Shown: piece by piece, positions 8,536 through 44,553 of the stretch
Numbering within the stretch: the stretch's first letter is position 1
How the letters are laid out: every line of letters starts with the position of its first letter
Position numbers and translations under genes: made by a program
The notes under the pieces: generated by a model
What the model was told of the DNA's origin: nothing
What the model saw: the letters and a program-made list of their open reading frames with translations, nothing else
The model's database searches: none
Source: a virus
Virus record (IMG/VR): IMGVR_UViG_3300045988_114118
Length of the DNA stretch: 63,362 nt
Direction: 5' to 3' (one strand)

Positions 8536-11500
8536 CATAAAACATTTATATGATACGATGATAAGCCGGGGCTATACTGGTCTTGGTGATTTCTCAAACT
8601 TTGAGGGGAAAATGAAAGATTCTGGGAAAAGAAAATTGGTTTATGATCATCTGATGCAGGATGATTATTTCTCTGAGATAGGCGATTTCTCCAAATTTGA
8701 GAGTGCCCTAGGGTATTTGCCCGTTGAAAGGAAAGATTACGTTTCTCAGTCAAGAGCTAATCCTGCTCCTATCGCTTTAAGACAAGAGGCTGACGTGCCT
8801 ATGAAGGATCAATCGGAATACGTTAATCCGTGGACGAACTCACCTGATTATAATTTTGAGTCCTTGCGTAAAAAAGGAAAGATTGAGACTGCGACTCCTC
8901 CACCTCCTACGGAGTATGAGAAGGATTCTTCTTTCATGAATAGTTGGGTTGCGGATTTCATTCAGCGTACCGGAGGCCAAGGATTGAATCTTTTAGGTGG
9001 AGGATTCGGTTTCTTGGATAAGGCGACAAAAGATGTCTCTAATATGGGCCTTGGTACTTATGGAGGAATGTTTGGTGACTCTGCTAAATTGCTTAAGGAG
9101 GCTGGTCAAAAACTCATGGATAAGGGTGATAGGCACAAAGAGAAGAGTTTCACGGATCTATGGAAAGAAGGTGATTACGCCGGATCAATTAGCAACTTGT
9201 TCATGGAAGGAGGTTCTATGATCATTCCACAAATAGCTGCGGCTATGGCTACAGGTGGAACTAGCGCGGCCGGTTTGATGGGAGCCTCCGTATATTCGGA
9301 TAAGCTGGATCAACTCGATGAGTCAAATCCGGATATGCCAGAATTGGCAAAGAGGGTCAATGCCATATCTACATCCGCTTTTGAATTATTATCCGAGAAA
9401 CTTTCATTGGGTCCGGCGGTTAAATGGCTTAAAGGCGTATATAACTCAAAGGGAAAGGATGTCGCTCAAAAAGAACTAGCTGGAGCCATAGAGAATATAC
9501 TTGGCAAGGCTTATAAAGATGCGGGATTATTGTTTGCACCCGTATGGGAAGGTGTCACGGAGGCCGCTTCGCAGATTGCGGAGAATATTACGGACAAGGT
9601 AACTGGGGCTGATCCCGATAAAAATATATCTGATGGCGTATTTGAGGCTTTCGGATATGGAGTTGCTGGTGGCGCTCCAATAGGTTTGATCGGATATGGG
9701 AAGAATAAGTATGATAATTACAAGTATAATAAAATGTCTTCTCCAGAACCTTCTACTAATTCATCTAAAACAGATCAAGGCGTTAATACTACTCCTCAAT
9801 TCACTAAGTCTATAATTGACGATGCCTTTGAGCAAGGACGTAATATGAGTGATAAGGGAGATCTTAGGGATTTATCCTTACAAATGGAAGCTTCGAGGAC
9901 TGCTCTAACAGAAAAAAATCCAAATTTGGCTATAAGAATGGAGCAGTATATAGATAATGGAGCGAGTGAGAACCAAATAAATGAGATGCTTAAAGGTGTA
10001 GATAATGAGACAAGAGAATTAGCTTATGATTTCTATATTAACACCCAGAAAATTAAAGGGGTAGAAGATAAATCGATAGAAAATATTAATAACGAAGTGG
10101 ATTCTTATATGTCTGATAATATTATTCCCTATGTATCGATAAGTCCTAATGGGAGACAAGTCATATCTACCGCTACGTTCAAGGAAGGACTTGAGAACAA
10201 GAAAGTTTATATAAGGAGCATAAATGGGGATAACGTCATTATCTCGGATAACGGAAATAATCGTATGGTTCCTATGAGTAGTTTGAGCGATATAGAGGAA
10301 AATGACGTGGAACAAATAAGGAACTCTTATCGTCAACAATTATTGGTTACTCGCCAGTCCGAACTTGATATGGCCATGAATCATAATCCCAAGACGCAAT
10401 TACCCAAGCCGGGATTGGTCATATGGAACGGGGATAATGCGTTTATCCTTCAAGGACAAGATGAGAACGGTGATTGGATCGCTCAACCTGCGGCTTATGA
10501 TAGAGAAACCGGGCAGGTGACAGCCAAGAATGGCTCTTCCCCCGCAATGCCTATAACAGAGAATGAGATTCTTGATCTTCAAGATGCCATATATGACTCT
10601 CAACAAGTTAATGTGGTGTCGCCAGAGGATGATAATGTAGCAAGTGCTGATGCCGAGATAACCTCTGCACCTCCTGTGGAAGATGCGATCAACCAGCCAA
10701 CGAGTGAGATTGAGACGGAAGGTGCCATTGATCAGATAGCACAACCTAGCAATGTAGAGAATCCCTCCATGGTCATGCGAGAAGATGGTACGCCAGATTT
10801 CGTATCGTCTGGTACGGATATGACCTTGGATTTCCTCCATGATAAATATGGCGATAAGATGCCAAGGAAGATCGAGGTGACGAGAAAGTCTTTCGATGAA
10901 AGCCTTAAAAAAGCGTCCGATGCCTTGGAAAAGGCGCAAGAGGCATACGATGACGCCCCTATCGGAAAAGAGGATAAGGCCGAGGCCGCATTGATAAAAG
11001 CCCGACAAGAATATGAGGCGATCAAGGTCGAGGCTGATTTCTGGGCTAATCTTGATGATGATATCAAGGAGGCCAGCAAGAAGCCGGGTGATGTCATAGC
11101 AAAGGAGATCTCCGTGATGGGTGATCCTATGAGCGGAGAGGAGCTTGCGGCCATGATGCTGGCTAATGGGGCGATCAAATTGACACGTGACAGTTACAAG
11201 AAAGAGACCGGTGCCGGGAATAATGAGACTGCAAGAATGTTCGGATTGTTCGCCTCTCCGGAGAAAGGCGGTGTTAATATAGAGAGGGCAGGTGAGATAT
11301 TGGAGCTTGCCGATAGGGAGAATGGCACTAACTTCTTCGATGAGAACGATACGAACGCCGGAAGGGACGCTATCATAGAGGTCTTGTCTTCCGCTCATAC
11401 ACGTGGAGACTTGATCGATTATGTCAAGAGGAACCGTGAGGCGATCGCTGAGCGTGAGAGACAGGCCGAGTACAACGCTTACGCTGAGTGGTGCGAGGAG

Positions 11501-14500
11501 AATTATCATATGTCCCCGGAAGAATACGAGGCGTATGAGGAAAGCATGGCACGTGATTTCTCGGAGAAACAATTGACTGATGAGGAGCGAGGCGAGCTTA
11601 ATTCGCAAATCATGGATGAAATACAGGCCATAATTGACGAACAAAATGAAATAGACGCTATCTTAGCGCAAAATAAACCGATAGAAAATGAAAACATTGA
11701 AGGAAATGACGAAAGCGGAGGCGATGGCTTACGCGAGGGAGGCGGCGAGGTATTGCCAAGAGAACAACTTGATCAGACCGGGGGAACTGGAGAGGTTGAG
11801 GGAAGAGAATCGGCTGGCCCCGACATTGATCGCACGGATGGAGCTACACAAGAAGGCTCATCAAGGGGACTAGTTTCTTTTGTCGCTCCTTCTCCAAAGG
11901 AGAATGAGACCCCATTGGACTATGCCGAGCGCATAGTTGAGGCTAAGAGATTGCACGAAGAGGAGCTAAAGGTTGATACCAATCCAACAGAGGCGCAGAA
12001 AGAGGCCGGGAATTACAAGAAAGGGCACATAAAGATAAACGGTTTCGATGTTTCCATAGAACAGCCCGTTGGTTCCGTCCGTTCAGGTAAGGACGCTAGC
12101 GGAAAGGAGTGGTCGCAGGTCATGAATAACACTTACGGTTACATTCGAGGCACTGAAAGTGTGGATGGTGATCATATAGACGTATTCCTAGGTCCGGATA
12201 TGAATAGTGACATGGTGTATGTCGTGGATCAGGTGAATACTGATGGCTCATTCGATGAGCATAAGGTTATGATGGGATTCTCTTCCTTGGAAGACGCAAG
12301 GTCCGCTTACTTGTCAAACTATGGGGAAGGTTGGCAAGGGTTAGGCAACATTACCGGGGTAGCGTTGGATGAGTTCAAGAAATGGATTGATTCTTCAATC
12401 CGGAAGACCAAACCGTTCTCTGAATATAAAGGAATTAAACGGGAGGAAGATATTGCCCCCCGAAAAGTAAAGAAATTGTCTTTGGTTGATAAAGACGATT
12501 ATATTACCTCCGCAGAGCGGAAGCATATAAAAGCGTTTCTGGAGAGTGGATTGAAAGAGGCAAGGGTGAACAATTCTATCTACGAGATTTCTAATATTGG
12601 TGATGATGGTGTTTATGAGATCGTAAGGCGGTTTAACTATACCGATCCATTGACCTTGGTGAAAGACGAGAACGGTAAACTAGTTAATAAGCGAGGGGAG
12701 GGTGAACATGTTATAAGGGTAAAGCCCACTTTTGAGGAGACAAGGCCGGATAGTGGTATTCGTTTCAGGGAGACACGTATTATCCCCGAAGAGGAAAATA
12801 TCATAAAGAAAGCGAAATCCGATGGATCTTATATGAAAGCTCCTAATGGCAACCCTACTAATCTTAACGAAAAGCAATGGGTACAAGTTCGTACGAAAGC
12901 GTTTAAGGAATGGTTCGGTGATTGGGAAAATAATCCAGAGGATGCGTCTAAAGTGATCGATGAGAATGGTGAGCCAAGGGTTGTATATCATGGAACATAT
13001 TCCGATTTTAACGCATTTGACGAATCCCATCTGGGAGATGTCACTAATCTTAATGCTACAAACGAGGATTGGGCAAAAACCTCACATATAGGATTCTGGT
13101 TTAATGATAATAAAATAGGTTTCTATACGAAACATAAACCAGTGTTCCTTAACGTTAGGAATCCTTTAGAGTTTGCTTCAATGGAATCGCTCGTTGATGA
13201 AATGAGTTATTATGATTCAGGAGAGGATTTCAAGCGATCAAATTCAGATGGGTATGATTCTGTGATAGTCCTTGAGGACGAAGAAATGGGAGGAAGATCC
13301 TATTCGGTCTTTAATGATAATCAAATAAAGTCTGCTACCGAAAACAATGGGGGCTTTTCTTCTCATAATGATGACATCCGCTTCCGGGAAGTAAAAGATA
13401 AGAATGGCGAAAAGTCCTTGGTTGGGTTACATAATATCAGTGAAGAAAAACTTCGAAAAGCATTGAGACAAGGAGGCTTCGCCAATCCGAGTGCGGCCGT
13501 TATAGACATATCCAGACAATCGCATACTGGCTATGGTTCCATATCGCTTGTACTTCCCTCTTCCATGATAGAGAAACGTACTGGAAAAAATGCTGGTACT
13601 TGGAGTCAAGACGCATGGACACCCATTTATCCAACTATAGAGAGGCAGTTTTCAGGGAAAGGCAGTGACGCATTTTCAAAAGACTTGCAAAAACTTCCAG
13701 AGGAAATGCGGTCGACAACCAAAAGTGGGATGGACAGCTATATGGATGGAAGAGGCGAGGATAGTCTTGCTTATATGTATTTATATGAGCAAGGTAAAGC
13801 TCCGGAATTAGCCCGTACAAAGCCTTCATATCCGGAGAAAACAAGAACCGAAGTTGAAGATGCCACAAATGGATCGTTCTCCATGAGTGGTTTGTCTGAC
13901 AAGCAATTGTCCCGTCTGAAAGATGCCTATATGGAATATAAAGGATTTAGTACGGAAGGTTACAATGAGGCGATAAAACTTCGTAGAGCCAAGCTTGAAG
14001 AAGCTATAGGTAAAATGAATCCAAGATCAATCCTCTACGAGAAACGTAAGACGGATCTTGAACGAATCGATAAGTATGGGTTTGATTACTCTGCGGTAGA
14101 AAGCTTCATGAAATCAGTACGTGATGACATAAGCAATTCTGACAAGGTTGATGCTCACGGAACAATGCGCGATTCATGGAATTTCATAGAAGAAAATGGA
14201 ATGCGAGGCGATTTTAACAAGTGGCTCGATAAATTGAATGAAAGGTACGGGATAAAAGAAATTATTTTTAACGGATTTACTCCTTCCGGTATAAGAAAGT
14301 ACATTCCTAACACCTTGGAGAACGTATCCAAGTTTATGAAGAAGCAAGGAAGAAGCGCATCTGTCGGAATAGGTGCGTCGTTCCAAAATTTCGCTGCGAG
14401 TTTGCTGGATGCTAAAGGCTCACTGAAAGATATACGCAAGGATAAAGGGAAGCTGACTACGGATCATGCTGACGTTGACGCTTTCAGGGATAAATGGTCT

Positions 14501-17500
14501 AAGGTATTTCATGAGTTAGGAGAAAAATTGCAACCGGATGCCAAAGGATATGACGACTACGGTCTATACAGGTTGGCGGAAGCGGCACGAAGCAAAGACC
14601 CTCAAAAATATATAAAGGAAGAATATGGGATAGATTTTTCTGATGAGGATGTGAAGACGCTGAATGAGATGGTGGATGCCATAAGGAATGAATATCCGGC
14701 AATGTACTTCGAGACTAAGTTTGAACGTCCTGTATATTTGGAGGAATTTGCTGCCGCTGTAGTCCCGGATAACGTAGATGGTGACATTCGTAAGGCGATA
14801 TACGATGCGGGTTTGAAAATATTCACTTATAAAGCCGATGATGAAATATCGAGAAATGAGGCAGTTAAGCAAGCCTCAGAAATTGATGGCGTTCGTTTTC
14901 GTTCTATAGGTGATAAAGGCGCTGATAATTTAAATAAGGCTGAAACTATTGAATCCTCAATCAACGATTGGTCTACCAAGCTTAACACCCCTGTCAGGGT
15001 AATCCATGACGTGGACGATATAAACGATACGGATGAGAATATGTTGGCCCGTAAGAGAGATTCCAAAGGCTGGTATGATACTTCTACCGGGGAGATAGTC
15101 ATAGTATCATCTAATTCCACGTCCGTAGGTGACGCTCAAAGGACTTTCCTCCATGAGGTGGTAGGGCATCATGGGTTACGTGAGCTATTCGGGGATGATT
15201 TCGATACTTTCCTTGATAACGTGTATCGGAACGCCAACGAGGATATCCGGAAAAATATCATTGACCGGACTAAAGGCAATCCTCTTAACTTGCGTGAGGC
15301 TACAGAGGAATACCTAGCGGAATTAGCGGAACGTGGTTTCGATAACAAGGTCGATCGTTCGTTATGGGAAAAGATCAAGGACGCTTTTCTTGATATGTTG
15401 AGAAAGGCAGGTATTAGCCTTGATTTCAAGTTATCGGATAATGACCTCCGTTATATTCTCTGGAGAAGCTATAAGAACTTGGAGCAAGGGAACTTGATGG
15501 ATGTGGCCGAGGATACGGTAATGAGGAATGATTTGGGTGTCGGGGATTTTTCTGTTCGGTTTAGGGAAGCGAAAACAGAGGTGGAGAATGAAGAACCTTT
15601 GAATAAGGAAATGGTTGACGCTTGGGATAAAGTGGCATCTTCAGACAGTTTTAAGTTCAAGGAGGCTATGGTTGATTCTTTAACAGCTATAGATGAGTTC
15701 TTGAAATTATTGGCCAAGAAAACCAAATCGAAGATACTGGATTACGAGAACCCATATTACGCTCTTATAGCCTTGTCTTCAAAGAATAAGGCAGATATGG
15801 ATAGTTTCGACTCTAAATTCCTGAATCCTTTGAATGAGGCTATAAGGGCATTGATAGGTGATGTCTCTGAGGTGTCCAAGAAAGGCTTAAGAAGAACTTG
15901 GGATTGGTCTAAAGGGCCATTAAGGGATTTGGTTAAATATGTACAATCTAAACACGGTATCGAGAGAAACCGTGATATGTCCGTAAGGGATGGCATAGAA
16001 ACTCTTAAGGCGTTTGACGTGGACGCTTTGTCTAAAATGGGGGTTATTTCCGAGTCTGATCTTAAAAACGCTAAAAAAACAGCGGAAAAGGTTGCGGAGG
16101 AAAAGGGGAGTGAGGCTTACAAAAAGACGTATGACAAGGTTCTTGGCAAGGAACTAAAGAAAGGTGTTGATAAAGGTAAGGCTGAGCGTTCTGCTGAGAT
16201 AGCCGCCGATTATCGGCAATCATTTGTCAAATCCGAGATCTATAACAAGGAGATGGATAAATATAAAGAAAAGGTGACCGGAACGTTGATTGATAGGTGG
16301 GAAGATTCAAAGAAAGATATCCTTAAGAAGGGTCTAGCGTGGGACGAGGAACAAAAGGAGTTGGATCGAGAGGCATTGTCATTCCAATGGAAGTTAGGCG
16401 ATAATTCTTATGGTGTGATTCTAGGAAAGGACTATAGTGGTTTGTCTTCAGTGTTTAAGCCTTCGGAGGATGGGGCGAATAAAGATAAATGGCTTTCTGA
16501 CGCTTATGATTTCGTGAGAGATTATGAGTCTACCCACAATATGGTTTTGGTCGATAATCTATGGGATAAGGTTCATAACGTGTCAGAGTATACGTTAAGG
16601 AGGCAGTATGAGTCCGGGCTGATAAGCAAGTCCTATATGGATAAGAACCTTTCCCGGTTTAAGTACTTTATCCCGTTGAGAGGTTTCTCCGATAATATTG
16701 CCTCCGATGTTTATGATTACATAGACGCTACGGAGATAAAGATGGGAAACCCAGTGAAGACCGCAAAAGGACGTATCTCTGAGGCTGATAATCCTTTTGC
16801 TGGTTTGATACACGTTGGATACGGATCTATTACCGCTGGAAATAGGAACTTGGCGAAACAACGTTTTCTCAATTTAGCTAGCAATCATGACACTGGCGGT
16901 CTTATTACCATAGATAATATCTGGGTTCGAAATGTCGGTACCGAGGAAAATCCGGAATGGGTGGAGTCCATTCCGCAAATACCGGATAACGCTTCTGGCG
17001 AGGAAGTGGCCAAGGCGGTGAAAGATCATGAGGAAATGATGAGAGAGCTTAGAGAGGAAGGTAAGGCTGAGCTGATTAAAGGAGGTCGATCGGATATACC
17101 ATATAAAACATTGTATGACCAGAGAAGCCAGCATCAGGTACAGGTTTTCGTGGGAGGTAACAGGTATGTCATGACCGTTAATGGCAATCCCCGATTGGCG
17201 CAAGCGGTAAATGGATTGACTAATCCGGATGTGAAGGATGATCTCGCTTACGTCGTAGCTAGGAACTTGAAAACATTTATGGCCGGAGCTTTTACGTCCA
17301 AGAACGTGGCGTTCTCGTTTGCCAACTTGATAAGAGATACGCCTTATGCCAATAACTCCGTGTTTGTGACGGAGAACTTTAGGTATTTCAAGGATTTTTC
17401 AGGGAACCAGAGGCGAGCGTTATTTGGACTTCGGAGTTTAGGTCGTAATCTGTATAAATACAAAAGGGGAGAGATCGATATTTCTGATAAGGAACAGGCA

Positions 17501-19021
17501 ATATTTAAGGAGTTCATGGATAATGGAGGGGCTACTGGATATACGTTCGTGGAGACGCAAAAAGAATACGCCAAGGATTTAGCGAACAAGTTAGAGAAAC
17601 TTTCGGATGGTAATATTGGGAAGTTATCCCCCAAAGAACTAGTCTCTACTGTTTTTGAGTGCTTTGAGTTCATGGGTAACGTAGCGGAACTTGTGAACCG
17701 ATATGCGGCGTATAAGACGAGCCGGGAACATGGAAGATCCATTGACCGGTCAATCAATGATGCCAAGGAGGTATCGGTTAACTTTAACAAGAAAGGTGCC
17801 GGAAAGAAAACGAAGAGCGATAAATGGTATATTAACACAGCGGCGTGGATATCTGAGTATGGAAGAGATTGGGTGTTGTTCTTTAACGCCGCCGTTCAAA
17901 GCATGTATAAGGAATATTCCATGCTGATAAATCATCCAATTAAAGGAATAGGTTCCCGTATTGCCCCACTAATATTCATGGGATCGTCTGTCTCGTTGCT
18001 CAATAATATGTTTATGCCTATGCTCTTCGCTTATTTGGGATGGGATAGCGATGATGATGATAGGGATTATTTTGATTCATTGAGCGATCATGAGAGACAG
18101 AATAATATATGTATTCGTTTGACTCATGGTCGTTGGCTCAAGATTCCGTTATCTCCGGAGCTTGCCAATTATTTCAAGATCGGAGATATAATTGCCGGGC
18201 AATTATCCGGTAAAAGGGAAGTGGAGGCTATGGATGTCGTTAAGACAGGGATTGATATGGTATCCCCGTTAAACATAAACTGGGAGTATGATAGTTGGAA
18301 GTTCGCTCTAAATCTCCTGCCTACGGTGGTTCAGCCTATCGCCCAAAACGCCTCTAACGTGAATTTTATGGGTAATCCTATCTATAAGACCTCGATGAAT
18401 AAGGCTAATGATTATGATCCGGAGTACACCAAGGTCTACAGGAGTACCAGTACCACCATGGTCGAGTTGTCGAGGGCGCTTAACTCGTTGACGGGTGGCG
18501 ACGATGTCAAGAGAGGTCTGAGCTTTAATCCGGCTACTTGGCAGAACATTTTTTCCGGATATACGGGAGGTTTTGGTACCGTAGCCTTGGGTGTGTCTGA
18601 TTTAGTCCTTGATATACTGTCCGGAGAGGATGGAGATATGCCAGTGAGTCGTTATCCACTGTTAAGCCGTTTCTTGACCGGAGGGGATAAGGATTTGAAG
18701 CTGAGCCGGATGAATTCCATATATAACAAGAAGGTCGTAGACTTTGTCTCGGAAATGGATCATGATTACAAAGGGTATCTAGAGAAGTCCATGGACCCAT
18801 CTATCAATATTCTTGACAGGGCCGAATATATCGTAAAACTTGAGAAGTTTATGAAAAGTGATGATTTCAAGAAATCTCAAGAATTATCTCAATACGTGAG
18901 AGCCATATCCGATATGGAAAGGTTCCTTCGTGAGGTAGGTAGCGATAATGATTCTCTGGAGAACCAAGTGTACGAGCTGAAGCTACGAGCGTTGGAGATA
19001 TTTGAGGATTCAGATGAGTGA
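8525..19021 (+). CDS. giant multi-domain 'polyvalent' protein (3,498 aa)
   Basis: uninterrupted 10.5-kb ORF; contains PPase-like, ART-like and HExxH modules and C-terminal hydrophobic helices. Confidence 0.95.
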   Translation: MDSNIKHLYDTMISRGYTGLGDFSNFEGKMKDSGKRKLVYDHLMQDDYFSEIGDFSKFESALGYLPVERKDYVSQSRANPAPIALRQEADVPMKDQSEYVNPWTNSPDYNFESLRKKGKIETATPPPPTEYEKDSSFMNSWVADFIQRTGGQGLNLLGGGFGFLDKATKDVSNMGLGTYGGMFGDSAKLLKEAGQKLMDKGDRHKEKSFTDLWKEGDYAGSISNLFMEGGSMIIPQIAAAMATGGTSAAGLMGASVYSDKLDQLDESNPDMPELAKRVNAISTSAFELLSEKLSLGPAVKWLKGVYNSKGKDVAQKELAGAIENILGKAYKDAGLLFAPVWEGVTEAASQIAENITDKVTGADPDKNISDGVFEAFGYGVAGGAPIGLIGYGKNKYDNYKYNKMSSPEPSTNSSKTDQGVNTTPQFTKSIIDDAFEQGRNMSDKGDLRDLSLQMEASRTALTEKNPNLAIRMEQYIDNGASENQINEMLKGVDNETRELAYDFYINTQKIKGVEDKSIENINNEVDSYMSDNIIPYVSISPNGRQVISTATFKEGLENKKVYIRSINGDNVIISDNGNNRMVPMSSLSDIEENDVEQIRNSYRQQLLVTRQSELDMAMNHNPKTQLPKPGLVIWNGDNAFILQGQDENGDWIAQPAAYDRETGQVTAKNGSSPAMPITENEILDLQDAIYDSQQVNVVSPEDDNVASADAEITSAPPVEDAINQPTSEIETEGAIDQIAQPSNVENPSMVMREDGTPDFVSSGTDMTLDFLHDKYGDKMPRKIEVTRKSFDESLKKASDALEKAQEAYDDAPIGKEDKAEAALIKARQEYEAIKVEADFWANLDDDIKEASKKPGDVIAKEISVMGDPMSGEELAAMMLANGAIKLTRDSYKKETGAGNNETARMFGLFASPEKGGVNIERAGEILELADRENGTNFFDENDTNAGRDAIIEVLSSAHTRGDLIDYVKRNREAIAERERQAEYNAYAEWCEENYHMSPEEYEAYEESMARDFSEKQLTDEERGELNSQIMDEIQAIIDEQNEIDAILAQNKPIENENIEGNDESGGDGLREGGGEVLPREQLDQTGGTGEVEGRESAGPDIDRTDGATQEGSSRGLVSFVAPSPKENETPLDYAERIVEAKRLHEEELKVDTNPTEAQKEAGNYKKGHIKINGFDVSIEQPVGSVRSGKDASGKEWSQVMNNTYGYIRGTESVDGDHIDVFLGPDMNSDMVYVVDQVNTDGSFDEHKVMMGFSSLEDARSAYLSNYGEGWQGLGNITGVALDEFKKWIDSSIRKTKPFSEYKGIKREEDIAPRKVKKLSLVDKDDYITSAERKHIKAFLESGLKEARVNNSIYEISNIGDDGVYEIVRRFNYTDPLTLVKDENGKLVNKRGEGEHVIRVKPTFEETRPDSGIRFRETRIIPEEENIIKKAKSDGSYMKAPNGNPTNLNEKQWVQVRTKAFKEWFGDWENNPEDASKVIDENGEPRVVYHGTYSDFNAFDESHLGDVTNLNATNEDWAKTSHIGFWFNDNKIGFYTKHKPVFLNVRNPLEFASMESLVDEMSYYDSGEDFKRSNSDGYDSVIVLEDEEMGGRSYSVFNDNQIKSATENNGGFSSHNDDIRFREVKDKNGEKSLVGLHNISEEKLRKALRQGGFANPSAAVIDISRQSHTGYGSISLVLPSSMIEKRTGKNAGTWSQDAWTPIYPTIERQFSGKGSDAFSKDLQKLPEEMRSTTKSGMDSYMDGRGEDSLAYMYLYEQGKAPELARTKPSYPEKTRTEVEDATNGSFSMSGLSDKQLSRLKDAYMEYKGFSTEGYNEAIKLRRAKLEEAIGKMNPRSILYEKRKTDLERIDKYGFDYSAVESFMKSVRDDISNSDKVDAHGTMRDSWNFIEENGMRGDFNKWLDKLNERYGIKEIIFNGFTPSGIRKYIPNTLENVSKFMKKQGRSASVGIGASFQNFAASLLDAKGSLKDIRKDKGKLTTDHADVDAFRDKWSKVFHELGEKLQPDAKGYDDYGLYRLAEAARSKDPQKYIKEEYGIDFSDEDVKTLNEMVDAIRNEYPAMYFETKFERPVYLEEFAAAVVPDNVDGDIRKAIYDAGLKIFTYKADDEISRNEAVKQASEIDGVRFRSIGDKGADNLNKAETIESSINDWSTKLNTPVRVIHDVDDINDTDENMLARKRDSKGWYDTSTGEIVIVSSNSTSVGDAQRTFLHEVVGHHGLRELFGDDFDTFLDNVYRNANEDIRKNIIDRTKGNPLNLREATEEYLAELAERGFDNKVDRSLWEKIKDAFLDMLRKAGISLDFKLSDNDLRYILWRSYKNLEQGNLMDVAEDTVMRNDLGVGDFSVRFREAKTEVENEEPLNKEMVDAWDKVASSDSFKFKEAMVDSLTAIDEFLKLLAKKTKSKILDYENPYYALIALSSKNKADMDSFDSKFLNPLNEAIRALIGDVSEVSKKGLRRTWDWSKGPLRDLVKYVQSKHGIERNRDMSVRDGIETLKAFDVDALSKMGVISESDLKNAKKTAEKVAEEKGSEAYKKTYDKVLGKELKKGVDKGKAERSAEIAADYRQSFVKSEIYNKEMDKYKEKVTGTLIDRWEDSKKDILKKGLAWDEEQKELDREALSFQWKLGDNSYGVILGKDYSGLSSVFKPSEDGANKDKWLSDAYDFVRDYESTHNMVLVDNLWDKVHNVSEYTLRRQYESGLISKSYMDKNLSRFKYFIPLRGFSDNIASDVYDYIDATEIKMGNPVKTAKGRISEADNPFAGLIHVGYGSITAGNRNLAKQRFLNLASNHDTGGLITIDNIWVRNVGTEENPEWVESIPQIPDNASGEEVAKAVKDHEEMMRELREEGKAELIKGGRSDIPYKTLYDQRSQHQVQVFVGGNRYVMTVNGNPRLAQAVNGLTNPDVKDDLAYVVARNLKTFMAGAFTSKNVAFSFANLIRDTPYANNSVFVTENFRYFKDFSGNQRRALFGLRSLGRNLYKYKRGEIDISDKEQAIFKEFMDNGGATGYTFVETQKEYAKDLANKLEKLSDGNIGKLSPKELVSTVFECFEFMGNVAELVNRYAAYKTSREHGRSIDRSINDAKEVSVNFNKKGAGKKTKSDKWYINTAAWISEYGRDWVLFFNAAVQSMYKEYSMLINHPIKGIGSRIAPLIFMGSSVSLLNNMFMPMLFAYLGWDSDDDDRDYFDSLSDHERQNNICIRLTHGRWLKIPLSPELANYFKIGDIIAGQLSGKREVEAMDVVKTGIDMVSPLNINWEYDSWKFALNLLPTVVQPIAQNASNVNFMGNPIYKTSMNKANDYDPEYTKVYRSTSTTMVELSRALNSLTGGDDVKRGLSFNPATWQNIFSGYTGGFGTVALGVSDLVLDILSGEDGDMPVSRYPLLSRFLTGGDKDLKLSRMNSIYNKKVVDFVSEMDHDYKGYLEKSMDPSINILDRAEYIVKLEKFMKSDDFKKSQELSQYVRAISDMERFLREVGSDNDSLENQVYELKLRALEIFEDSDE
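12008..12360 (+). other. inorganic-pyrophosphatase-like domain within the giant ORF (aa 1162-1279)
   Basis: NTYGYIRGTESVDGDHIDVFLGP...DEHKVMMGF; DGDHIDV is one residue off the family I PPase DxDPxDV signature. Confidence 0.55.
12971..13390 (+). other. ADP-ribosyltransferase-like module within the giant ORF (aa 1483-1622)
   Basis: RVVYHGT..F..FD...GFWF...FLNVRNP...YSVFNDNQIKSA pattern, recalled from ART-type domains of polyvalent proteins; not verified by search. Confidence 0.4.
14968..15470 (+). other. zincin-type metallopeptidase module within the giant ORF (HEVVGHH at 15152-15172)
   Basis: TFLHEVVGHHGLRELFG carries an HExxH motif, with a helical region downstream. Confidence 0.6.
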
Positions 19022-38674: not shown

Positions 38675-39136
38675 ATGAGAACGATTAACAGGAAAATCAA
38701 CTTGATCGTGATCCATTGTTCGGCCACTAGGGTAGATAAGGATTATACCCCTGAGCAATTAGAGAGAGACCACAAGGCGAGAGGATTCAACTCCGCAGGT
38801 TATAACTATTATATCCGGAAGAGCGGGGAGATAGTATCTATGCGTCCATTGGAATTGATTCCGGCTCATGTGACCGGATATAACAAGAATAGTATAGGAA
38901 TATGCTATGAGGGTGGTCTTGATCCGGACGGGAATCCGGATGATACACGTACGGAGGCACAGAGACAGTCGATTATAAGGCTGTTGTTGGATTTGGTCGT
39001 ACAGTTCCCGGATAGTAGGATCTGCGGTCATCGTGACCTATCCCCGGATCTTAACGGTAACGGTAAGATTGAACCGGACGAGTGGATGAAGATGTGTCCG
39101 TGTTTTAATGCCGAGGAGGAGTATCGCAATATATGA
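38675..39136 (+). CDS. N-acetylmuramoyl-L-alanine amidase (endolysin)
   Basis: LIVIHCSAT...AGYNYYI...AHVTGYN..SIGICYEGG...CGHRDL is an Amidase_2/PGRP-type pattern. Confidence 0.9.
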   Translation: MRTINRKINLIVIHCSATRVDKDYTPEQLERDHKARGFNSAGYNYYIRKSGEIVSMRPLELIPAHVTGYNKNSIGICYEGGLDPDGNPDDTRTEAQRQSIIRLLLDLVVQFPDSRICGHRDLSPDLNGNGKIEPDEWMKMCPCFNAEEEYRNI

Positions 39137-39600
39137 AACCTTGGCAAGTAATATTAATACTAGTGTGCTTGGTAGCCAGTTTCACGGCTGGCTACCATAT
39201 CCGGGGGGATGTGACTGATAAAGTCGTGTCTAAATCCGATACCGTATTAATAACCGACACGATCCATGACAGTATCCCGTATCCTGTTTATGAGACACTG
39301 GTACAAACAATACCTGAGCCGTTCCCTGTTTATATCACGTTGGACGGTGACACGGTAAAGGAACCTGTATATGTTCCGGTACCCATAACCAGCAAGGAGT
39401 ACAAGACGGATGATTACCGGCTTTCAATTTCGGGTTACAAGCCTAATCTTGATTACATCGAGGTTTATAGAAGGACTGAGTATATAACCAAGACGATCAC
39501 CCCCCGTAGATGGGGAATAGGTGTTATTGCCGGTTATGGGATCGGGAAACATGGACTATCACCTTACGTTGGATTGGGTGGATTCTGCAGGATTTGGTGA
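39133..39600 (+). CDS. N-terminally anchored protein, possible spanin/lysis accessory
   Basis: MKPWQVILILVCLVASFTAG TM anchor; 4-nt overlap with the amidase. Confidence 0.4.
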   Translation: MKPWQVILILVCLVASFTAGYHIRGDVTDKVVSKSDTVLITDTIHDSIPYPVYETLVQTIPEPFPVYITLDGDTVKEPVYVPVPITSKEYKTDDYRLSISGYKPNLDYIEVYRRTEYITKTITPRRWGIGVIAGYGIGKHGLSPYVGLGGFCRIW

Positions 39601-39809
39601 GGCCTCCATGACTCACGTCCGGGAAGCCCCTATTAACTAGTAATAATAATTCGTCATATGAATAACAAGGGTTGACGTTTTTTTGTTCATGGTTAATTTA
39701 ATATTAGTTTGATGGTGACTTCGTGAGAACGAACCGGAAAGGGAAGATGAAGAAAAAAGAATCTTCCCTAAATAATCGGATCGGAAGTTTGATTATTTTT
39801 TCATGCCAC

Positions 39810-39857
39810 GCACGACGGGAAGATTCTTATAAGTCTTTCTGCCGTGCATTTTTTTTT
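39810..39857 (+). terminator. rho-independent terminator ending the late operon
   Basis: long imperfect stem gcacgacgggaaga/tctttctgccgtgc followed by T9. Confidence 0.7.
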
Positions 39858-39898
39858 GCCCGGCTTGATAGTAAAACAAACCACGAAATAAAAAGTTT

Positions 39899-40195
39899 AT
39901 GAATAAGGTGGAAATTTTTTACAAAAAAGTGATAGAGGCAGTCTGCAAGGAGTGCGGGACCGATCCGGTAATGATGTTTAGCAACAACAAGGAGAGGAAC
40001 GTTGACGCTAGGGGAGTGGCTATAACCATACTGGCCGATCGCAAGTTGAGCGACAATATCATATCCGATCTGACTGGAATGACGAGGCAAGCCGTGAACC
40101 GGATGCGTAACTTGTACCCGGACAGGATAAGGAGGAGTTACTACCTGAGGAGGACGGTGGAGAGCGTCAAAGAGGAGCTATCCGGTACGGTCTGA
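39899..40195 (+). CDS. small HTH protein (DnaA C-terminal-like)
   Basis: ERNVDARGVAITILADRKLSDNIISDLTGMTRQAVNRM resembles the DnaA domain IV HTH. Confidence 0.45.
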   Translation: MNKVEIFYKKVIEAVCKECGTDPVMMFSNNKERNVDARGVAITILADRKLSDNIISDLTGMTRQAVNRMRNLYPDRIRRSYYLRRTVESVKEELSGTV

Positions 40196-40348
40196 GGGTG
40201 CGTTATGTTGTAAGGCATGTGATTTGTCTATGAAAAAATTTTCATATAACAAAATTTTGTGCGACCTTTGCGGCGTAAAAGGTGATTTTGTAGCCTCGTC
40301 AAGTAACCAGCCTTGGCAGAGGCTTTGTTGTATACGAAAAGTTTCATT

Positions 40349-41248
40349 ATGGAAATATATATGCCACATGCGGTAAATGATATTAGGATAGGAGAAGCCT
40401 TCAATCATCTATTCAGGATAATCCTGAAAATGGAGAATTCCGATGATGATGATTTCATATGGAACTTCCAATATACGGCATTTGTGACTCCATTTTTCTT
40501 ATTGCCTCTTATGCTTTATAGAGATAAGTGCGGTAAGAATGTGGTTTGCAAGAATATATCGGACAGTGTTAAAAGCTATCTGGACTCTATTCATTTTGAA
40601 GGAGGTGTAGTAGCTGACAGTGTTAGTGATTTTCATAATTATATGGAATATTTTTCTATGAAAAAATATATTCCTATAATAAAGTTCCCGGGATGTAAAA
40701 GCAAGGATAGCATAAAAAACGATATACTGTCTGTAGCAGAGAATATAATGATAAGGCAATTAAATATTGAAGGAGAGTTGAGAAAGGCTTTATCTTATAT
40801 GCTGACTGAGACGATTGACAATATATCTGAACATTCAGAGAGTGAATTTGGTTATATATTTGCTCAGTATTATCCGTCAAAGAGTTATATAGACATTTGC
40901 ATAGCGGATAATGGTATAAGTATACTGGGTAGTTATGTTAAGTCTGGCAAGGGAGGTATAACTAACGATGTGGAGGCTTTAAAAAGCGCTGGAAAGGGTA
41001 TATCGACTAAAAATTTACCAGATACCGAGAATCGTGGTTATGGTATAAGTACTTGCAAGAGAATGTTGTCTAAGGGACTTGGAGGAACATATTTTTTGCT
41101 GTCAGGGCAAGCATTTCATCTTATGTCAGAGGAAGAGACATCATATATAGGACTTCCTGATTATATAAAATGGGATGGAACTATAGTGGCATTAAGGATA
41201 CCATATAAAGAGGAAAGGATGTTTAATTTTTATGAATATTTAGAATGA
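40349..41248 (+). CDS. GHKL/histidine-kinase-like ATPase protein
   Basis: ETIDNISEH (N box), IADNGISI (G1-like), ENRGYGIS and GLGGTY (G2-like); AT-rich. Confidence 0.6.
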   Translation: MEIYMPHAVNDIRIGEAFNHLFRIILKMENSDDDDFIWNFQYTAFVTPFFLLPLMLYRDKCGKNVVCKNISDSVKSYLDSIHFEGGVVADSVSDFHNYMEYFSMKKYIPIIKFPGCKSKDSIKNDILSVAENIMIRQLNIEGELRKALSYMLTETIDNISEHSESEFGYIFAQYYPSKSYIDICIADNGISILGSYVKSGKGGITNDVEALKSAGKGISTKNLPDTENRGYGISTCKRMLSKGLGGTYFLLSGQAFHLMSEEETSYIGLPDYIKWDGTIVALRIPYKEERMFNFYEYLE

Positions 41249-41604
41249 AGATCATGGAAAAGACAATTGTGATATCAGAATTGATAAGGGGAGAGCTTCG
41301 TTCTAGGACAGAAGCTAAAAAAATCTATATGAGGGCTAAGGATTTGAATAGCCCATGTGTACGTATAGATTTTAAGGATGTATACTTTATGTCTCGATCA
41401 TTTGCGGATGAGTTATGCAATACAATAGAGGCTTTGGCCTTGGATAAAGTGAGGGTCTCTATGGAGAATGAGAACGACTCTATAGATCTGATGATGAAAA
41501 TAGTAAAAGGTAATAGAAATAAACCGAGGAATATGCATGAGGACAGTGAGGTTAAAGAATTTTCGGACATGGATTCATTGTCAGAGTTCCTGTCTACCAT
41601 ATAA
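41245..41604 (+). CDS. STAS-like (DUF4325-type) protein
   Basis: SRTEAKKIY....VRIDFKDVYFMSRSFADELCN pattern recalled from DUF4325; 4-nt overlap with the ATPase gene. Confidence 0.5.
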   Translation: MKIMEKTIVISELIRGELRSRTEAKKIYMRAKDLNSPCVRIDFKDVYFMSRSFADELCNTIEALALDKVRVSMENENDSIDLMMKIVKGNRNKPRNMHEDSEVKEFSDMDSLSEFLSTI

Positions 41605-41635
41605 AATTATTTCATGCTATATAAAAGAGAATGAT

Positions 41636-41797
41636 ATGAAAAATCCAAAAATAGCTAAGGAGTATAATGAATTCCTAGAAAGGAATAGTTTTGATAAATA
41701 CTCAGATAGAAAAAAATATATATCTAGTCCAACCACGCTACAATGCATGTATTGGAAACAGGTGGAACCGGTAGAAATAAAAAGTAACCAACCATAA
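41636..41797 (+). CDS. 53-aa hypothetical protein, third gene of the cassette
   Basis: internal ATG of track ORF 41537-41797 (MKNPKIAKEYNEF...). Confidence 0.35.
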   Translation: MKNPKIAKEYNEFLERNSFDKYSDRKKYISSPTTLQCMYWKQVEPVEIKSNQP

Positions 41798-41848
41798 AAA
41801 TTAAGCGTTGTATATGCCTTTGGTTTGAAAGGTTTAAACAACAACAAT

Positions 41849-41884
41849 AAGCGTCGTCAACACAAATTGGCGGCGCTTTTTTTG
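41849..41884 (+). terminator. rho-independent terminator after the cassette
   Basis: aagcgtcgtc/ggcggcgctt, 10-bp stem (two G.U), followed by a T-run. Confidence 0.7.
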
Positions 41885-41906
41885 TCTTATCCCCTTCCGC
41901 AAAGAA

Positions 41907-41956
41907 CTAGCAACAACCTCGCAACAAGCTAGCAAGGAGATATTTATTTAGCAAGG
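41907..41956 (+). promoter_or_regulatory. array of four GCAA-core repeats upstream of the 42019 operon
   Basis: ctaGCAAcaa, ctcGCAAcaa, ctaGCAAgga, ttaGCAAggc; core spacing 11, 11 and 19 bp. Confidence 0.45.
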
Positions 41957-42018
41957 CACTTCTCTGGATTTTTGTGGTGTCCGGGATAACCCGGATATGA
42001 CCATAAAAAACTTCACAT

Positions 42019-42780
42019 ATGGAAGCAGAGAAAATCATTAAAGAGAAAGAGATCGTCCATGAGGATGAGCACAGGGATTACGCGAGCAAGGGCGTGGGTA
42101 ACGCCGGCTTGACATTGGGTATCATTGGTACGGCTCTTGGAGCTTGGGCGGTGTCACGTAACCGTGGCGGCTTGTTCGGCGGTGGCTGGGGAGCCGGTAT
42201 GCCCGAGAACGTTAACATCAACACGACCACAGGAGGCGGTGGCGGTTCTGGTGTAGGCGCTCCGACAGCGTTCATGGCATGGGAGAAAGGTTGTGAGGAG
42301 GCTATTTCCTTGACTAACTCATTGTGGGGACTTCACGTGTCCAGCATGCAGGCCGATTACGACCATCGTAATACGGATGTAGCCGAGAAATTCCAGCTTT
42401 ACCAATCACAGGTAAACGGCGATTTCGGGAACTACAAGGCTATCCGTGATCTTAACGACTATCAAACCGACAAGCTTAACAATGCGGCGTTTGGCCTTTA
42501 CAAGAGCCAACGTGATGGTTTTGACGTATTGGCTAATCGAATCAGCCATCTAGAAAAAGAGGTAGCCGTAGGTGCCGCTATCCGTCCTTACCAAGATCGT
42601 CTGATCCAGTGCGAGATTGACAAGGCGTTCACGGCTTCTGTCAACTACACGAGACAGCTTGATTGTCGTAACATCAAGGGCGAGTTGGTATTGCCTAACA
42701 CCCCTGTCGTTACCGGTTATGGGAGTTACCGTAGCTGCTGTGGGTTTCCCCAGACAAGCGCCCCCGCTGAGACAGCTTGA
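42019..42780 (+). CDS. glycine-rich membrane-associated protein (putative virion protein)
   Basis: GNAGLTLGIIGTALGAWAV TM segment, GGGGGSG tract. Confidence 0.6.
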   Translation: MEAEKIIKEKEIVHEDEHRDYASKGVGNAGLTLGIIGTALGAWAVSRNRGGLFGGGWGAGMPENVNINTTTGGGGGSGVGAPTAFMAWEKGCEEAISLTNSLWGLHVSSMQADYDHRNTDVAEKFQLYQSQVNGDFGNYKAIRDLNDYQTDKLNNAAFGLYKSQRDGFDVLANRISHLEKEVAVGAAIRPYQDRLIQCEIDKAFTASVNYTRQLDCRNIKGELVLPNTPVVTGYGSYRSCCGFPQTSAPAETA

Positions 42781-42837
42781 TAATCCGAAGCCCAAACCCA
42801 AGGCGAAGGCTAAGGTTAGCAAGAGAAAGAAAAGTTA

Positions 42838-42862
42838 GTGGTAGCCCCTCGGGGCTTACCAC
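42838..42862 (+). terminator. strong hairpin between the 42019 gene and the next gene
   Basis: gtggtagccc/gggcttaccac, about 10-bp stem, followed by tttcc. Confidence 0.5.
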
Positions 42863-42894
42863 TTTCCTATTACCAACCACTAACAAAAGATATT

Positions 42895-43401
42895 ATGGCA
42901 TTAAATAACGTATACATAGGAGGTGACCCGTTATTGGGGTCTAACGGTAACATGAGCAATGAGATGGAGGCTTATGAGCGTCAGTTGCAAGAGACCCTCA
43001 ATCAGATACAAGTTCATAAACAGAGGGTGTTAAACCCTCAGAACCCCAAAAGAAGCCAATCTCCATTATGGGATGAGATGGACAAGGTCGTTAACGACAT
43101 GACGGACATGGAGATCGAGGCGTTAAACAACGACCCGGAATACCAGAAGGCGCAAAACGCGCTGATGGGAATCCTTAACCGGGAATACATGCGTATCATG
43201 CGCCCGATCGTGGAAGAATCCAAGGACGGAAAGGAGATACTGGACAGCCTTATGGCAATCACAAAAAGAGTCAAGAAATCGGCCTCGGAGGAAGCGAACA
43301 AGAATATAGCGCTCTTTAATGAGTATACGTCTAAATACGCCGATATGCCCTACGCTGAGTTCCTGAAGCTGAAGAACAGTGGCAAGAAACAACCTAATTA
43401 A
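42895..43401 (+). CDS. hypothetical protein
   Basis: track ORF; ATG at 42895 preferred because the upstream part is the hairpin. Confidence 0.55.
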   Translation: MALNNVYIGGDPLLGSNGNMSNEMEAYERQLQETLNQIQVHKQRVLNPQNPKRSQSPLWDEMDKVVNDMTDMEIEALNNDPEYQKAQNALMGILNREYMRIMRPIVEESKDGKEILDSLMAITKRVKKSASEEANKNIALFNEYTSKYADMPYAEFLKLKNSGKKQPN

Positions 43402-43409
43402 TCGGGATC

Positions 43410-43853
43410 ATGGAACTGAAACAGCAAGCGTTGGAATTGAAGAGCCGGTTGGTGAACTCGGTGGAGATATGGGCGGAGGAAAGGGTTGACTCTTTCGTCT
43501 CTGGGAACACGGCATTCAAGCCCCTCGGCAAGTATCTTAAAAGAGGTGTCCACAACATCCTCGTGCAAAAGGACAAGGAGATCACTGATAAGGTGGAGGG
43601 TTTCATGATGTTCGTCGCTGACGAGAACGGCAATTACGATAAGGAAGAGCTATTCGATGACGCTATGAACGTATTCAAGAGCATGAAGCCGTATAAGTTC
43701 GAGCAAGGATTTATCAAGGGTACGATCGGGGAAGGCTCCATCTTGATAGAGCTTCCTGATAACGGCCTCATGAATTTTATCCTTGGTGACACTAACGCTA
43801 TCCGTATAACGGAAGCGGATTTTTTGGAGTTGAAATCAATATTTACCGAATAA
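43410..43853 (+). CDS. hypothetical protein
   Basis: track ORF of 147 aa. Confidence 0.6.
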   Translation: MELKQQALELKSRLVNSVEIWAEERVDSFVSGNTAFKPLGKYLKRGVHNILVQKDKEITDKVEGFMMFVADENGNYDKEELFDDAMNVFKSMKPYKFEQGFIKGTIGEGSILIELPDNGLMNFILGDTNAIRITEADFLELKSIFTE

Positions 43854-43864
43854 TAATATGAGAT

Positions 43865-44356
43865 ATGAGATACAAGGAATTGATGAAGGACTATCATTCG
43901 AAAGGAATGGTATCCGAAAAAAAGATGTGGGAGGCCATAGGAGAACTGGACGAGGCGATGGAGTGTCTAAAGGAAAAAGATCCCGAGAAGTATGACGAGG
44001 CCATACGTGATATACATGAGGTTTTTTGCGGTCCTCATTATAATGAGCATTTCGCTAAGATGGACGTGGCGGCAATGCACCATAAAGGCAAGTCGGGGGA
44101 GGATAAGGGTGAGCACTGGAACATCCAGCAAGTAACCGCCGTAGCTAAAGGCATGAGCATACCGGGAAATACCAACATATGGGATGTGTACGTCGCTCTT
44201 AACGCGAACTGGCACGACAAGGAGGTGAAGTTCTCGGAATGGTTCGGTCCGGACGCCGAGAAAAAGATCATCGAGGATGCTATTAATTTCTACTTCATGG
44301 ACGATGACGCTCCTGAAGGCAAGGTCTGGATTTACATGTGCGCTATGGATGATTAG
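43865..44356 (+). CDS. hypothetical protein
   Basis: track ORF of 163 aa. Confidence 0.6.
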   Translation: MRYKELMKDYHSKGMVSEKKMWEAIGELDEAMECLKEKDPEKYDEAIRDIHEVFCGPHYNEHFAKMDVAAMHHKGKSGEDKGEHWNIQQVTAVAKGMSIPGNTNIWDVYVALNANWHDKEVKFSEWFGPDAEKKIIEDAINFYFMDDDAPEGKVWIYMCAMDD

Positions 44357-44516
44357 GACACGATCACATAACAAGAAAAGAAACGATTCTGTAAGACGGG
44401 AGATAGACCGCCTTATAGAATCGTTGTCGTTCGAGCCTATAAACTTTCATGAGGTTATGGCCCGGATTAGGCACTTGATGTGCCATGAATATTCTATGAA
44501 TAAGAAATATCGTTAG
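44349..44516 (+). CDS. 55-aa basic hypothetical protein (uncertain)
   Basis: internal ATG of track ORF 44277-44516; fills an otherwise empty gap. Confidence 0.3.
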   Translation: MIRTRSHNKKRNDSVRREIDRLIESLSFEPINFHEVMARIRHLMCHEYSMNKKYR

Positions 44517-44553
44517 TATATTCTGGATTTCACTTCCTTTGAGAAAAAAAATA

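Follow-up and report, generated by a model that had tools for sequence, protein, structure and literature searches.

What does a temperate phage gain from a predicted protein kinase encoded next to a STAS-domain protein, with no sigma factor for the pair to control? The question is raised by an AT-rich block at positions 40196–41886 of a 63,362-nucleotide (nt) viral DNA, IMG/VR record IMGVR_UViG_3300045988_114118, the whole of which we refer to as the window. A reading made from the letters alone (the sequence-only reading) had described this block as a three-gene cassette encoding a GHKL ATPase, a STAS-like protein and a 53-amino-acid (aa) open reading frame (ORF), had likened the two larger products to partner-switching pairs lacking a sigma factor, and had known of no described mechanism for such a pairing. 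We find that the conserved unit consists of two genes, here called A and B, without a third. They probably form a self-contained, horizontally mobile kinase–substrate switch of the VapK/VapS type, which a temperate Bacteroides phage carries as accessory cargo. The features of the two genes are as follows.

40361–41248, plus strand: gene A, predicted STAS-GHKL Ser/Thr kinase of 295 aa; an alternative ATG at 40349 would give 299 aa
40361–40696, plus strand: N-terminal STAS-like domain of A (aa 1–112), presumed sensor, delimited by the model pattern and hhalign
40697–41245, plus strand: predicted Bergerat-fold (GHKL) kinase domain of A, with N-box E150/N154 at 40808–40822, G1 box D183-x-G185, G2 box R225-G226-x-G228, and G273-T274
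41245–41604, plus strand: gene B, 119-aa STAS protein (divergent DUF4325), predicted phospho-substrate of A, overlapping A by 4 nt (ATGA)
41392–41412, plus strand: predicted phospho-acceptor motif of B, S50-R51-S52-F53-A54-D55-E56, at the N-terminus of helix α2
41560–41601, plus strand: C-terminal amphipathic helix of B (aa 106–119), a possible partner-binding element as in VapS, from model and conservation

The assignment of A is carried by its motifs and its predicted fold. The protein contains ETIDNISEH, ADNGISI and ENRGYGIS, and residues E150, N154, D183, G185, R225, G226, G228, G273 and T274 are invariant across 38 homologues with 40–75% identity. The AlphaFold model has a predicted local distance difference test (pLDDT) score of 88 and comprises two domains. 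With the C-terminal domain, Foldseek returned the catalytic domains of DesK and VraS, SpoIIAB and GyrB at probabilities of about 1, and the highest target-normalised template modelling (TM) scores, 0.65–0.70, were obtained with SpoIIAB. By motifs and α/β sandwich, A belongs to the GHKL/Bergerat group, in agreement with the fold and the motifs that had been read from the sequence; the length then given, 300 aa, has to be changed to 295 or 299 aa, and the shorter form, starting at 40361, is the one annotated in Bacteroides phage BF1-TP2. That reading had missed a STAS-like domain at the N-terminus of A itself. Residues 1–112 follow a β-α-β-α-β-α pattern in the model, and hhalign matched this domain to the STAS profile of the B family with a probability of 89% (expectation value, E, 2e-6), against an E of 0.87 for the C-terminal domain as a control. 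Because its N-terminal domain is STAS-like, A has the STAS-GHKL architecture of VapK. T43, at the phospho-site position of this domain, is not conserved among the 38 homologues. Over its full length A matches PHROG 3364 (E 4e-36), a family without assigned function, and its relatives P0243 and P0210 pass the HATPase_c cut-off of 26.4 bits with 27.5 and 26.8 bits. The NCBIfam scan of the window proteins gave no match, and a PDB sequence search with A returned nothing.

Gene B encodes a 119-aa protein that starts within the last codons of A by a 4-nt overlap and contains VRIDFKDVYFMSRSFADELCN, exactly as described beforehand. Its model (pLDDT 87) consists of a STAS domain, a flexible linker and a C-terminal amphipathic helix. 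The top Foldseek matches, namely RsbS, the prestin STAS domain, the stressosome, RsbV and SpoIIAA (probability 0.93–1.0, TM-score about 0.5), agree with the STAS-like fold that had been proposed for it. In the model helix α2 begins at residue 51, and [S/T]50-R51-S52 caps this helix, which is the position of phosphorylation in STAS antagonists. Among 76 distinct B proteins, residue 50 is either T (39) or S (37), while R21, R51, S52, D55, E56 and V87 are invariant. Past the STAS domain there is a tail of only about 30 aa, in which a linker with a pLDDT of about 58 precedes a helix at residues 109–117; the hydrophobic pattern F106, L112, F/Y115 and L116 is conserved. A hidden Markov model of the B family finds ORFC of the archaeal phage psiM100 (E 1e-18) and a Clostridioides phage protein (E 1e-11), and these two proteins pass the DUF4325 threshold with 29.4 and 54.9 bits, respectively. 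PADLOC returned nothing for B. Between diverged alleles, the ratio of nonsynonymous to synonymous substitution rates (dN/dS) is 0.06–0.07 for A and 0.09–0.13 for B; given this purifying selection (0.06–0.13 overall), both are real genes.

The sequence-only reading's statement that no mechanism was known for such a pairing has been overtaken by the description of CapK/CapS and VapK/VapS/VapC (Chambers et al., EMBO J 2026; PMC13373217). CapK, an HTH-STAS-GHKL protein, is switched on by single-stranded DNA (ssDNA) and phosphorylates a conserved Ser on helix α2 of CapS, a STAS protein with a winged helix-turn-helix (wHTH) domain, whereupon the adjacent immune operon is de-repressed (PMC13373217). 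VapK (STAS-GHKL) is proposed to phosphorylate VapS, a STAS protein with a short C-terminal helix, and thereby to free the PIN toxin VapC; the resulting VapKSC system is toxin–antitoxin-like and protects against a phage, and both VapK and CapK are kinases by experiment (PMC13373217). Earlier literature had noted only a PIN subfamily "transcriptionally coupled to DUF4325" (PMC5499597).

We compared profiles of the A and B families with the VapK, VapS, CapK and CapS sequences given in Appendix Table S2 of PMC13373217. By hhalign, the A profile aligns with VapK over 247 collinear columns (E 5e-4, 23% identity, probability 31%) and with CapK over the segment from the N-box to G1 (E 8e-5), and the signature E-x-x-x-N-x-x-[ED]-H-S-x-S-x-x-G is common to all three proteins. 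With VapS, the B profile gives an alignment (probability 82%, E 1e-5) that places S50 of B on the VapS phospho-site S48; with the STAS domain of CapS it gives none. In a PDB search, the sole match to the B profile was Escherichia VapS (9Z7O), a weak one at E 0.18. As the profiles align with VapK and VapS and that of B does not align with CapS, the pair falls on the VapK/VapS side of the superfamily, and A and B are remote homologues of VapK and VapS. The residues reported to contact ssDNA, W68 in CapK and F54 in VapK (PMC13373217), could not be placed on A.

To define the conserved unit, we used 80 genome loci from species representatives together with further contigs. A B-family ORF lies directly 3′ of A in all 83 testable loci, that is, those in which the sequence continues past A; the four loci without B are contigs that end just after A. 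The median gap between the genes is about 12 nt across loci, with the ATGA overlap in the window. Neighbour clustering revealed no third recurrent gene, the commonest neighbour family being an integrase in 7 loci. The 147 immediate neighbours match 149 different Pfam families, and the top 25 of these as listed include no PIN domain, sigma factor or PP2C phosphatase, which bears out the absence of a sigma-factor partner noted earlier. Searches with phmmer found nothing with VapC in the window or the loci, and nothing recurrent with psiM100 ORFD as the query. In 28 of 73 loci the gene after the pair runs in the opposite direction, and where it runs in the same direction a median of 222 nt lies before it; the tightly coupled downstream genes are housekeeping genes, encoding Tex, MatE, TrkA, peptidase C69 and CBAH. 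The conserved unit is therefore the two genes A and B, rather than the three first supposed, and since VapC was found neither in the window nor in the loci, the pair departs from VapKSC in its third gene.

The phage that carries the pair has known relatives. Positions 39000–43500 of the window are about 90% identical at the nucleotide level to Bacteroides phage BF1-TP2 (PQ571263.1, host B. fragilis BL19), where the cassette corresponds to gp43 ("ATP-binding protein"), gp42 ("DUF4325 domain-containing protein") and gp41; A is 100% identical to gp43. BF1-TP2 encodes a tyrosine recombinase, a repressor, the Ant anti-repressor and the Rha regulator, and is therefore temperate. In the more distant phages BS-TP4 and BKO1-TP3 (29–37% aa identity), a homologue of the 39133–39600 gene directly precedes homologues of the genes at 44539 and 45062, so that the interval 39600–44539 is extra in the window; this extra block is larger than the cassette. 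In these two phages (L167/L168) the syntenic region upstream of the lysis genes contains cargo of other kinds, namely a reverse transcriptase next to a DUF4376 gene, a RelE/XRE pair (BS-TP4) and a Lar-like restriction-alleviation gene (BKO1-TP3). The surroundings of the lysis module look like a hot spot for cargo among these phages. Across 48 distinct contigs of the BF1-TP2-like population, the A–B core is 99–100% identical in nucleotides while the flanks are mosaic. Because loci were ranked by similarity to A, this near-identity is partly a selection effect, and we use it solely to show that one allele occurs in mosaic backgrounds.

Relatives of the pair are widespread. We found 155 matching stretches among genome representatives, mostly metagenome-assembled genomes of Bacteroidales, and 173 IMG/VR contigs that encode a relative; 384 protein clusters (50% clustering) match the family profile at E ≤ 1e-30. 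The pair has a mean GC content of 0.379, compared with 0.459 in its flanks, and is the lower of the two in 69 of 75 loci. The features expected of a moron, a terminator of its own and a deviant composition, are both present in the window, and the cassette is absent from the same site in BS-TP4 and BKO1-TP3. Together with the occurrence of the pair in unrelated contexts, these features support the earlier view of an accessory, horizontally acquired element. PADLOC recognised no known defence system in the cassette; its matches in the window were a methyltransferase and a partial one between A and the N-terminus of the DrmA model (E 2e-8). Among neighbours of the pair at other loci, the PADLOC census recorded GajB, DRT-associated proteins, Hhe, PDC-S37, PDC-S01, PDC-M43A, MkoA and Vsr.

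Two further contexts were observed. In three Alistipes contigs (L004–L006), the pair lies in an integrase-bounded island with a Gabija-like pair (OLD-family TOPRIM ATPase and UvrD helicase), a MobC-like gene and an AAA_14/DUF4143 ATPase. A metagenomic contig (L173:1-4171; JGI 3300005264 Ga0073581_105627) encodes a RecQ-like DEAD/Helicase_C protein of at least 1266 aa that ends in a complete A module (STAS-like plus GHKL), followed by a gene for a 117-aa B-like STAS protein (E 5e-13). This arrangement is a helicase-kinase plus STAS variant of the system.

The boundaries of the unit in the window, and the other features within them, are the following.

39810–39857, plus strand: intrinsic terminator at the end of the lysis/late genes and upstream boundary of the unit, hairpin 39810–39847 followed by U9
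39899–40195, plus strand: small HTH gene of 98 aa, with weak Pfam matches to Bac_DnaA_C / HTH_26 (E 0.009–0.02)
40229–40246, no strand assigned: 8-bp inverted repeat TATGAAAA-aa-TTTTCATA 5′ of gene A, arms 40229–40236 and 40239–40246, of doubtful significance
41636–41797, plus strand: 53-aa ORF "C", a doubtful gene, lineage-specific and unstable in frame
41849–41884, plus strand: intrinsic terminator closing the cassette, a 12-bp stem followed by a U-run

Both hairpins are well supported: the upstream one has a folding free energy of −19.6 kcal/mol (z −3.8), and the downstream one, at 41849–41878 and followed by U7, has −18.8 kcal/mol (z −6.2). Between them, positions 40200–42000 have a GC content of 0.32–0.37, as against 0.46–0.47 upstream and 0.48–0.53 downstream, so that the AT-rich block between two terminators stands as first described. 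The order of genes within it is A (295/299 aa), B (119 aa) and the 53-aa ORF. The small HTH gene had been placed outside the cassette as part of its boundary; it exists, and falls within the terminator-bounded unit. Its GC content of 0.47 is unlike that of the cassette. It is 96–100% conserved together with A and B in BF1-TP2-like viral contigs, and is absent beside the pair in the 80 genome loci. The HTH gene lies outside the conserved module, and its link to the pair is confined to this phage lineage.

The 53-aa ORF has no relative beside any other A–B pair and no family match; of the loci compared, none but the window and BF1-TP2 has this ORF or the upstream HTH gene. In the phage lineage its first 28 or so codons alone are stable, after which length and sequence changes around a poly-A tract near 41716–41722 give versions of 31, 46, 53, 55 and 68 aa, and in one contig (L125) the ORF is absent and unrelated sequence follows gene B directly. 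This variation in frame could be phase variation, decay or assembly error. We rejected the ORF as a member of the module, given its absence beside other pairs and its unstable frame.

The inverted repeat 5′ of A was found at 40229–40246, two positions from where the sequence-only reading had put it (40231–40248). It carries little weight: a comparable repeat turns up in 107 of 5000 shuffles (about 2%) of the intergenic region, and 2.45 kb of the surrounding AT-rich DNA has 14 inverted repeats with arms of 8 nt or more. On these grounds we rejected it as an operator. A perfect Bacteroides −7 motif (TAnnTTTG) is absent from the intergenic region upstream of A, and a Bacteroides-type promoter 5′ of A was likewise rejected, being without statistical support. 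Directly 3′ of the cassette, a GC-rich gene (0.50–0.53; 42019–42780) encodes a protein of 253 aa that contains a glycine-rich segment and matches no family; among otherwise near-identical phage contigs it is 78% conserved or absent. Elsewhere in the window, one ORF of 3498 aa spans positions 8525–19021. It corresponds to the 10.9-kb hypothetical gene gp68 of BF1-TP2, and its product is unusually large for a phage protein.

How might the two proteins work? We infer strongly that A phosphorylates B, and the cue, the partner and the benefit to the lysogen can be sketched by the same kind of reasoning. A cue, most likely ssDNA or some other nucleic acid that arises when the cell is infected or its DNA damaged, would activate A, which would then phosphorylate B at one hydroxyl of [S/T]50-R51-S52 at the start of helix α2. 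Phosphorylated B would bind differently through its STAS face and C-terminal helix, and the pair would act as a VapKS-type phospho-switch in trans or on itself. The pair stands by itself, with no effector gene, in more than 80 contexts; what it controls must therefore be one of its own two proteins, by a toxin–antitoxin-like or partner-switching logic, or else some conserved component of the host or the phage. The pay-off for the lysogen is expected to be stress- or infection-triggered exclusion or abortive defence, or modulated prophage behaviour. The choice of a nucleic-acid cue draws some weak support from the RecQ-like helicase–A fusion and from the match of A to the N-terminus of the DrmA model. 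A bolder version, which we offer tentatively and regard as possible though doubtful, is that the two genes are a complete system without a separate effector: A, a nucleic-acid-sensing kinase borne by the prophage, would on being triggered phosphorylate B and so free A or B to act on a conserved host or phage target, aborting superinfection or coupling the prophage to DNA damage without RecA/LexA.

Several observations weigh against the reading of A and B as a mobile VapK/VapS-type switch. Direct family assignments are sub-threshold: A scores 12.1 bits against HATPase_c_2 (cut-off 27.4, E 0.2), and B scores 16.8 bits against Pfam DUF4325 (PF14213; cut-off 23 bits, E 0.006). The homology to VapK and VapS is remote, as the 23% identity and the probabilities of 31% and 82% indicate. 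The acceptor residue is ambiguous by alignment: the VapS alignment points to position 50, the CapS context points to S52, which fits the S-F-x-x-E context of CapS S54, and a simple collinear alignment puts Ser58 of SpoIIAA on R51 of B. The proposal of ssDNA as the cue is based on analogy. The searches listed above linked the pair to no effector, phosphatase, sigma factor or DNA-binding domain. Promoter-like sites in the cassette are no commoner than in shuffled sequences, and no promoter was identified. Of 80 viral contigs, 5 (L149–L153) have a copy of A that has lost a single nucleotide, four times in an A6 run (window 40709–40714) and once in a GG (40582); these frameshifts reflect either inactivation in part of the population or homopolymer sequencing errors. 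Finally, at many of its insertion sites the pair stands beside housekeeping genes, and defence genes are only occasional neighbours. On the possible defence role suggested by the sequence-only reading, the PADLOC search gave no known system and the neighbourhood census these occasional neighbours.

Many of the same observations bear on other explanations of the pair. The pair is an autonomous bicistronic unit whose genes overlap at start and stop, and 83 loci show no third gene to be conserved with it. Such an organisation would also suit a two-gene toxin–antitoxin or abortive-infection module in which A or B is itself the effector. Either A would be a toxic kinase, acting by off-target phosphorylation or sequestration, with B as its pseudo-substrate antitoxin, or unphosphorylated B would be toxic and neutralised by A, following the logic of type VII toxin–antitoxin systems exemplified by TakA/TglT. 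An AT-rich, highly mobile pair found between housekeeping genes and in islands and prophages behaves as such modules do, and the related VapKSC is itself toxin–antitoxin-like. Neither A nor B contains a recognisable toxic domain, however, and those relatives that have been characterised use the kinase as a sensor and the STAS protein as an inhibitor, not as a toxin; we consider this explanation rather unlikely. Classical partner switching, in which A would be an anti-sigma or anti-factor kinase like SpoIIAB or RsbW and B the antagonist that releases the factor, so that the prophage rewires transcription of the host or of a superinfecting phage, can appeal to the TM-scores of the A kinase domain with SpoIIAB (0.65–0.70) and to RsbS, RsbV and SpoIIAA among the fold matches of B. 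The STAS-like domain that A has in addition at its N-terminus is missing from anti-sigma kinases, neither a sigma factor nor a PP2C appears among the top 25 of the 149 neighbour families listed, and by its sequence signatures A goes with VapK and CapK, not with RsbW, which leaves this explanation with very little probability.

The terminator-bounded block invites another explanation. HTH gene, A and B lie in it together, 96–100% conserved in a mosaic phage population, an inverted repeat separates the HTH gene from A, and CapK/CapS is a DNA-damage-responsive transcription switch. The pair could on these grounds be a phage-specific regulator, a sensor of DNA damage or ssDNA that works with the HTH protein (39899–40195) and feeds into prophage induction or late-gene control instead of defence. 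Yet none of the 80 genome loci has the HTH gene beside the pair, the GC content of this gene is unlike that of the cassette, B has no DNA-binding domain, the pair occurs mostly outside prophages, and the repeat is statistically weak, all of which makes such a regulator improbable. That A is an ATPase of the GHKL clamp or chaperone-like kind, with B a regulatory STAS subunit that is never phosphorylated, seems to us scarcely credible: the E-x-x-x-N motif is common to ATPases of the GyrB/MutL type and GyrB is among the fold matches of A, but A lacks the transducer (S5-fold) domain, its best matches are histidine-kinase catalytic domains and SpoIIAB, B retains invariant hydroxyls exactly at the STAS phospho-site, and the homologues VapK and CapK are kinases by experiment. 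We retain the VapK/VapS-type kinase–substrate switch as the preferred reading of the cassette.

Kinase–STAS switches such as CapKS and VapKSC have only just been recognised as DNA-damage sensors of bacterial immunity. The same sensor–substrate core circulates alone, without a nuclease or DNA-binding output, in abundant Bacteroides prophages of the human gut (the 173 IMG/VR contigs), in the 155 genomic stretches, and in Clostridioides and archaeal phages. Identifying the target of the orphan pair would show whether this core is an effector itself or a plug-in to host pathways, and would offer a way to learn how infection or DNA damage is sensed by gut prophages. If the effector-less reading is true, which we hold possible but by no means likely, A and B would constitute a minimal two-protein phospho-relay immune or regulatory module that is widespread in gut Bacteroidales and their phages.

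Comparison with known systems places the pair more precisely. SpoIIAB/SpoIIAA and RsbW/RsbV likewise combine a Bergerat-fold Ser kinase with a STAS antagonist, the A kinase domain being closest to SpoIIAB by target-normalised TM-score and B matching RsbS, RsbV and SpoIIAA. Neither SpoIIAB nor RsbW has the extra STAS-like domain of A; the window cassette and the listed neighbour families contain no sigma factor or PP2C; and A and B form a mobile, AT-rich unit that does not belong to a core developmental operon. Closer parallels in organisation are found in other phages. In the Methanothermobacter prophage psiM100 (AF301375.1 6786-9578, L169), an A-like ORFB (E 7e-33) and the DUF4325/B-like ORFC lie in the "inserted fragment IFa", the classic insertion that distinguishes psiM100 from psiM2. 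Unlike the window cassette, IFa adds the 492-aa ORFD as a third gene; Pfam gives no match for ORFD, but its N-terminus, MKILVDTNILI, resembles that of a PIN protein. A pair of two genes is also present in Clostridioides phage ES-S-0173-01, where a DUF4325 gene comes after an A-like gene and the B-like protein lacks the C-terminal tail. In both phage genomes the genes occupy an inserted or accessory region. The A-like proteins of psiM100 and of the Clostridioides phage are 27–36% identical to A. In Francisella phage KIRK, Fhv_0046/0047 are described in the gene table as a 293-aa hypothetical protein beside a 112-aa DUF4325 protein, between CI and the integrase, and the likeness we draw is to this gene-table description alone.

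The two recently described switches are the most informative points of reference. CapK–CapS shares with the pair a GHKL kinase with a STAS domain, a STAS partner encoded directly downstream, and the N-box signature N-x-x-[ED]-H-S-x-S-x-x-G. In contrast to CapK, A has no N-terminal HTH domain and starts directly with its STAS-like domain; B lacks the wHTH DNA-binding domain of CapS; and in the neighbour censuses of the loci no immune operon lies downstream of the pair. VapKSC agrees with the pair in more respects: VapK, of about 296 aa, consists of STAS and GHKL domains without an HTH domain, as A does; VapS, of about 116 aa, is encoded directly after the kinase and has a short C-terminal helix and a conserved Ser/Thr, as B has; and in both cases defence genes are neighbours in a minority of instances. 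It differs in that no VapC/PIN gene accompanies the pair in the window or in any of the 83 loci, as far as neighbour clustering, the listed families and phmmer reach, in the motif of the B clade, [S/T]-R-S-F-x-D-E instead of A-S-P-F-F in VapS, and in that the A–B pair occurs mostly in Bacteroidales and their phages. Set against these systems, what is new is that a module so widespread and so strongly conserved has no output domain: the cassette is an orphan, effector-less variant of the VapKS/CapKS kinase–STAS switches, carried as prophage cargo.

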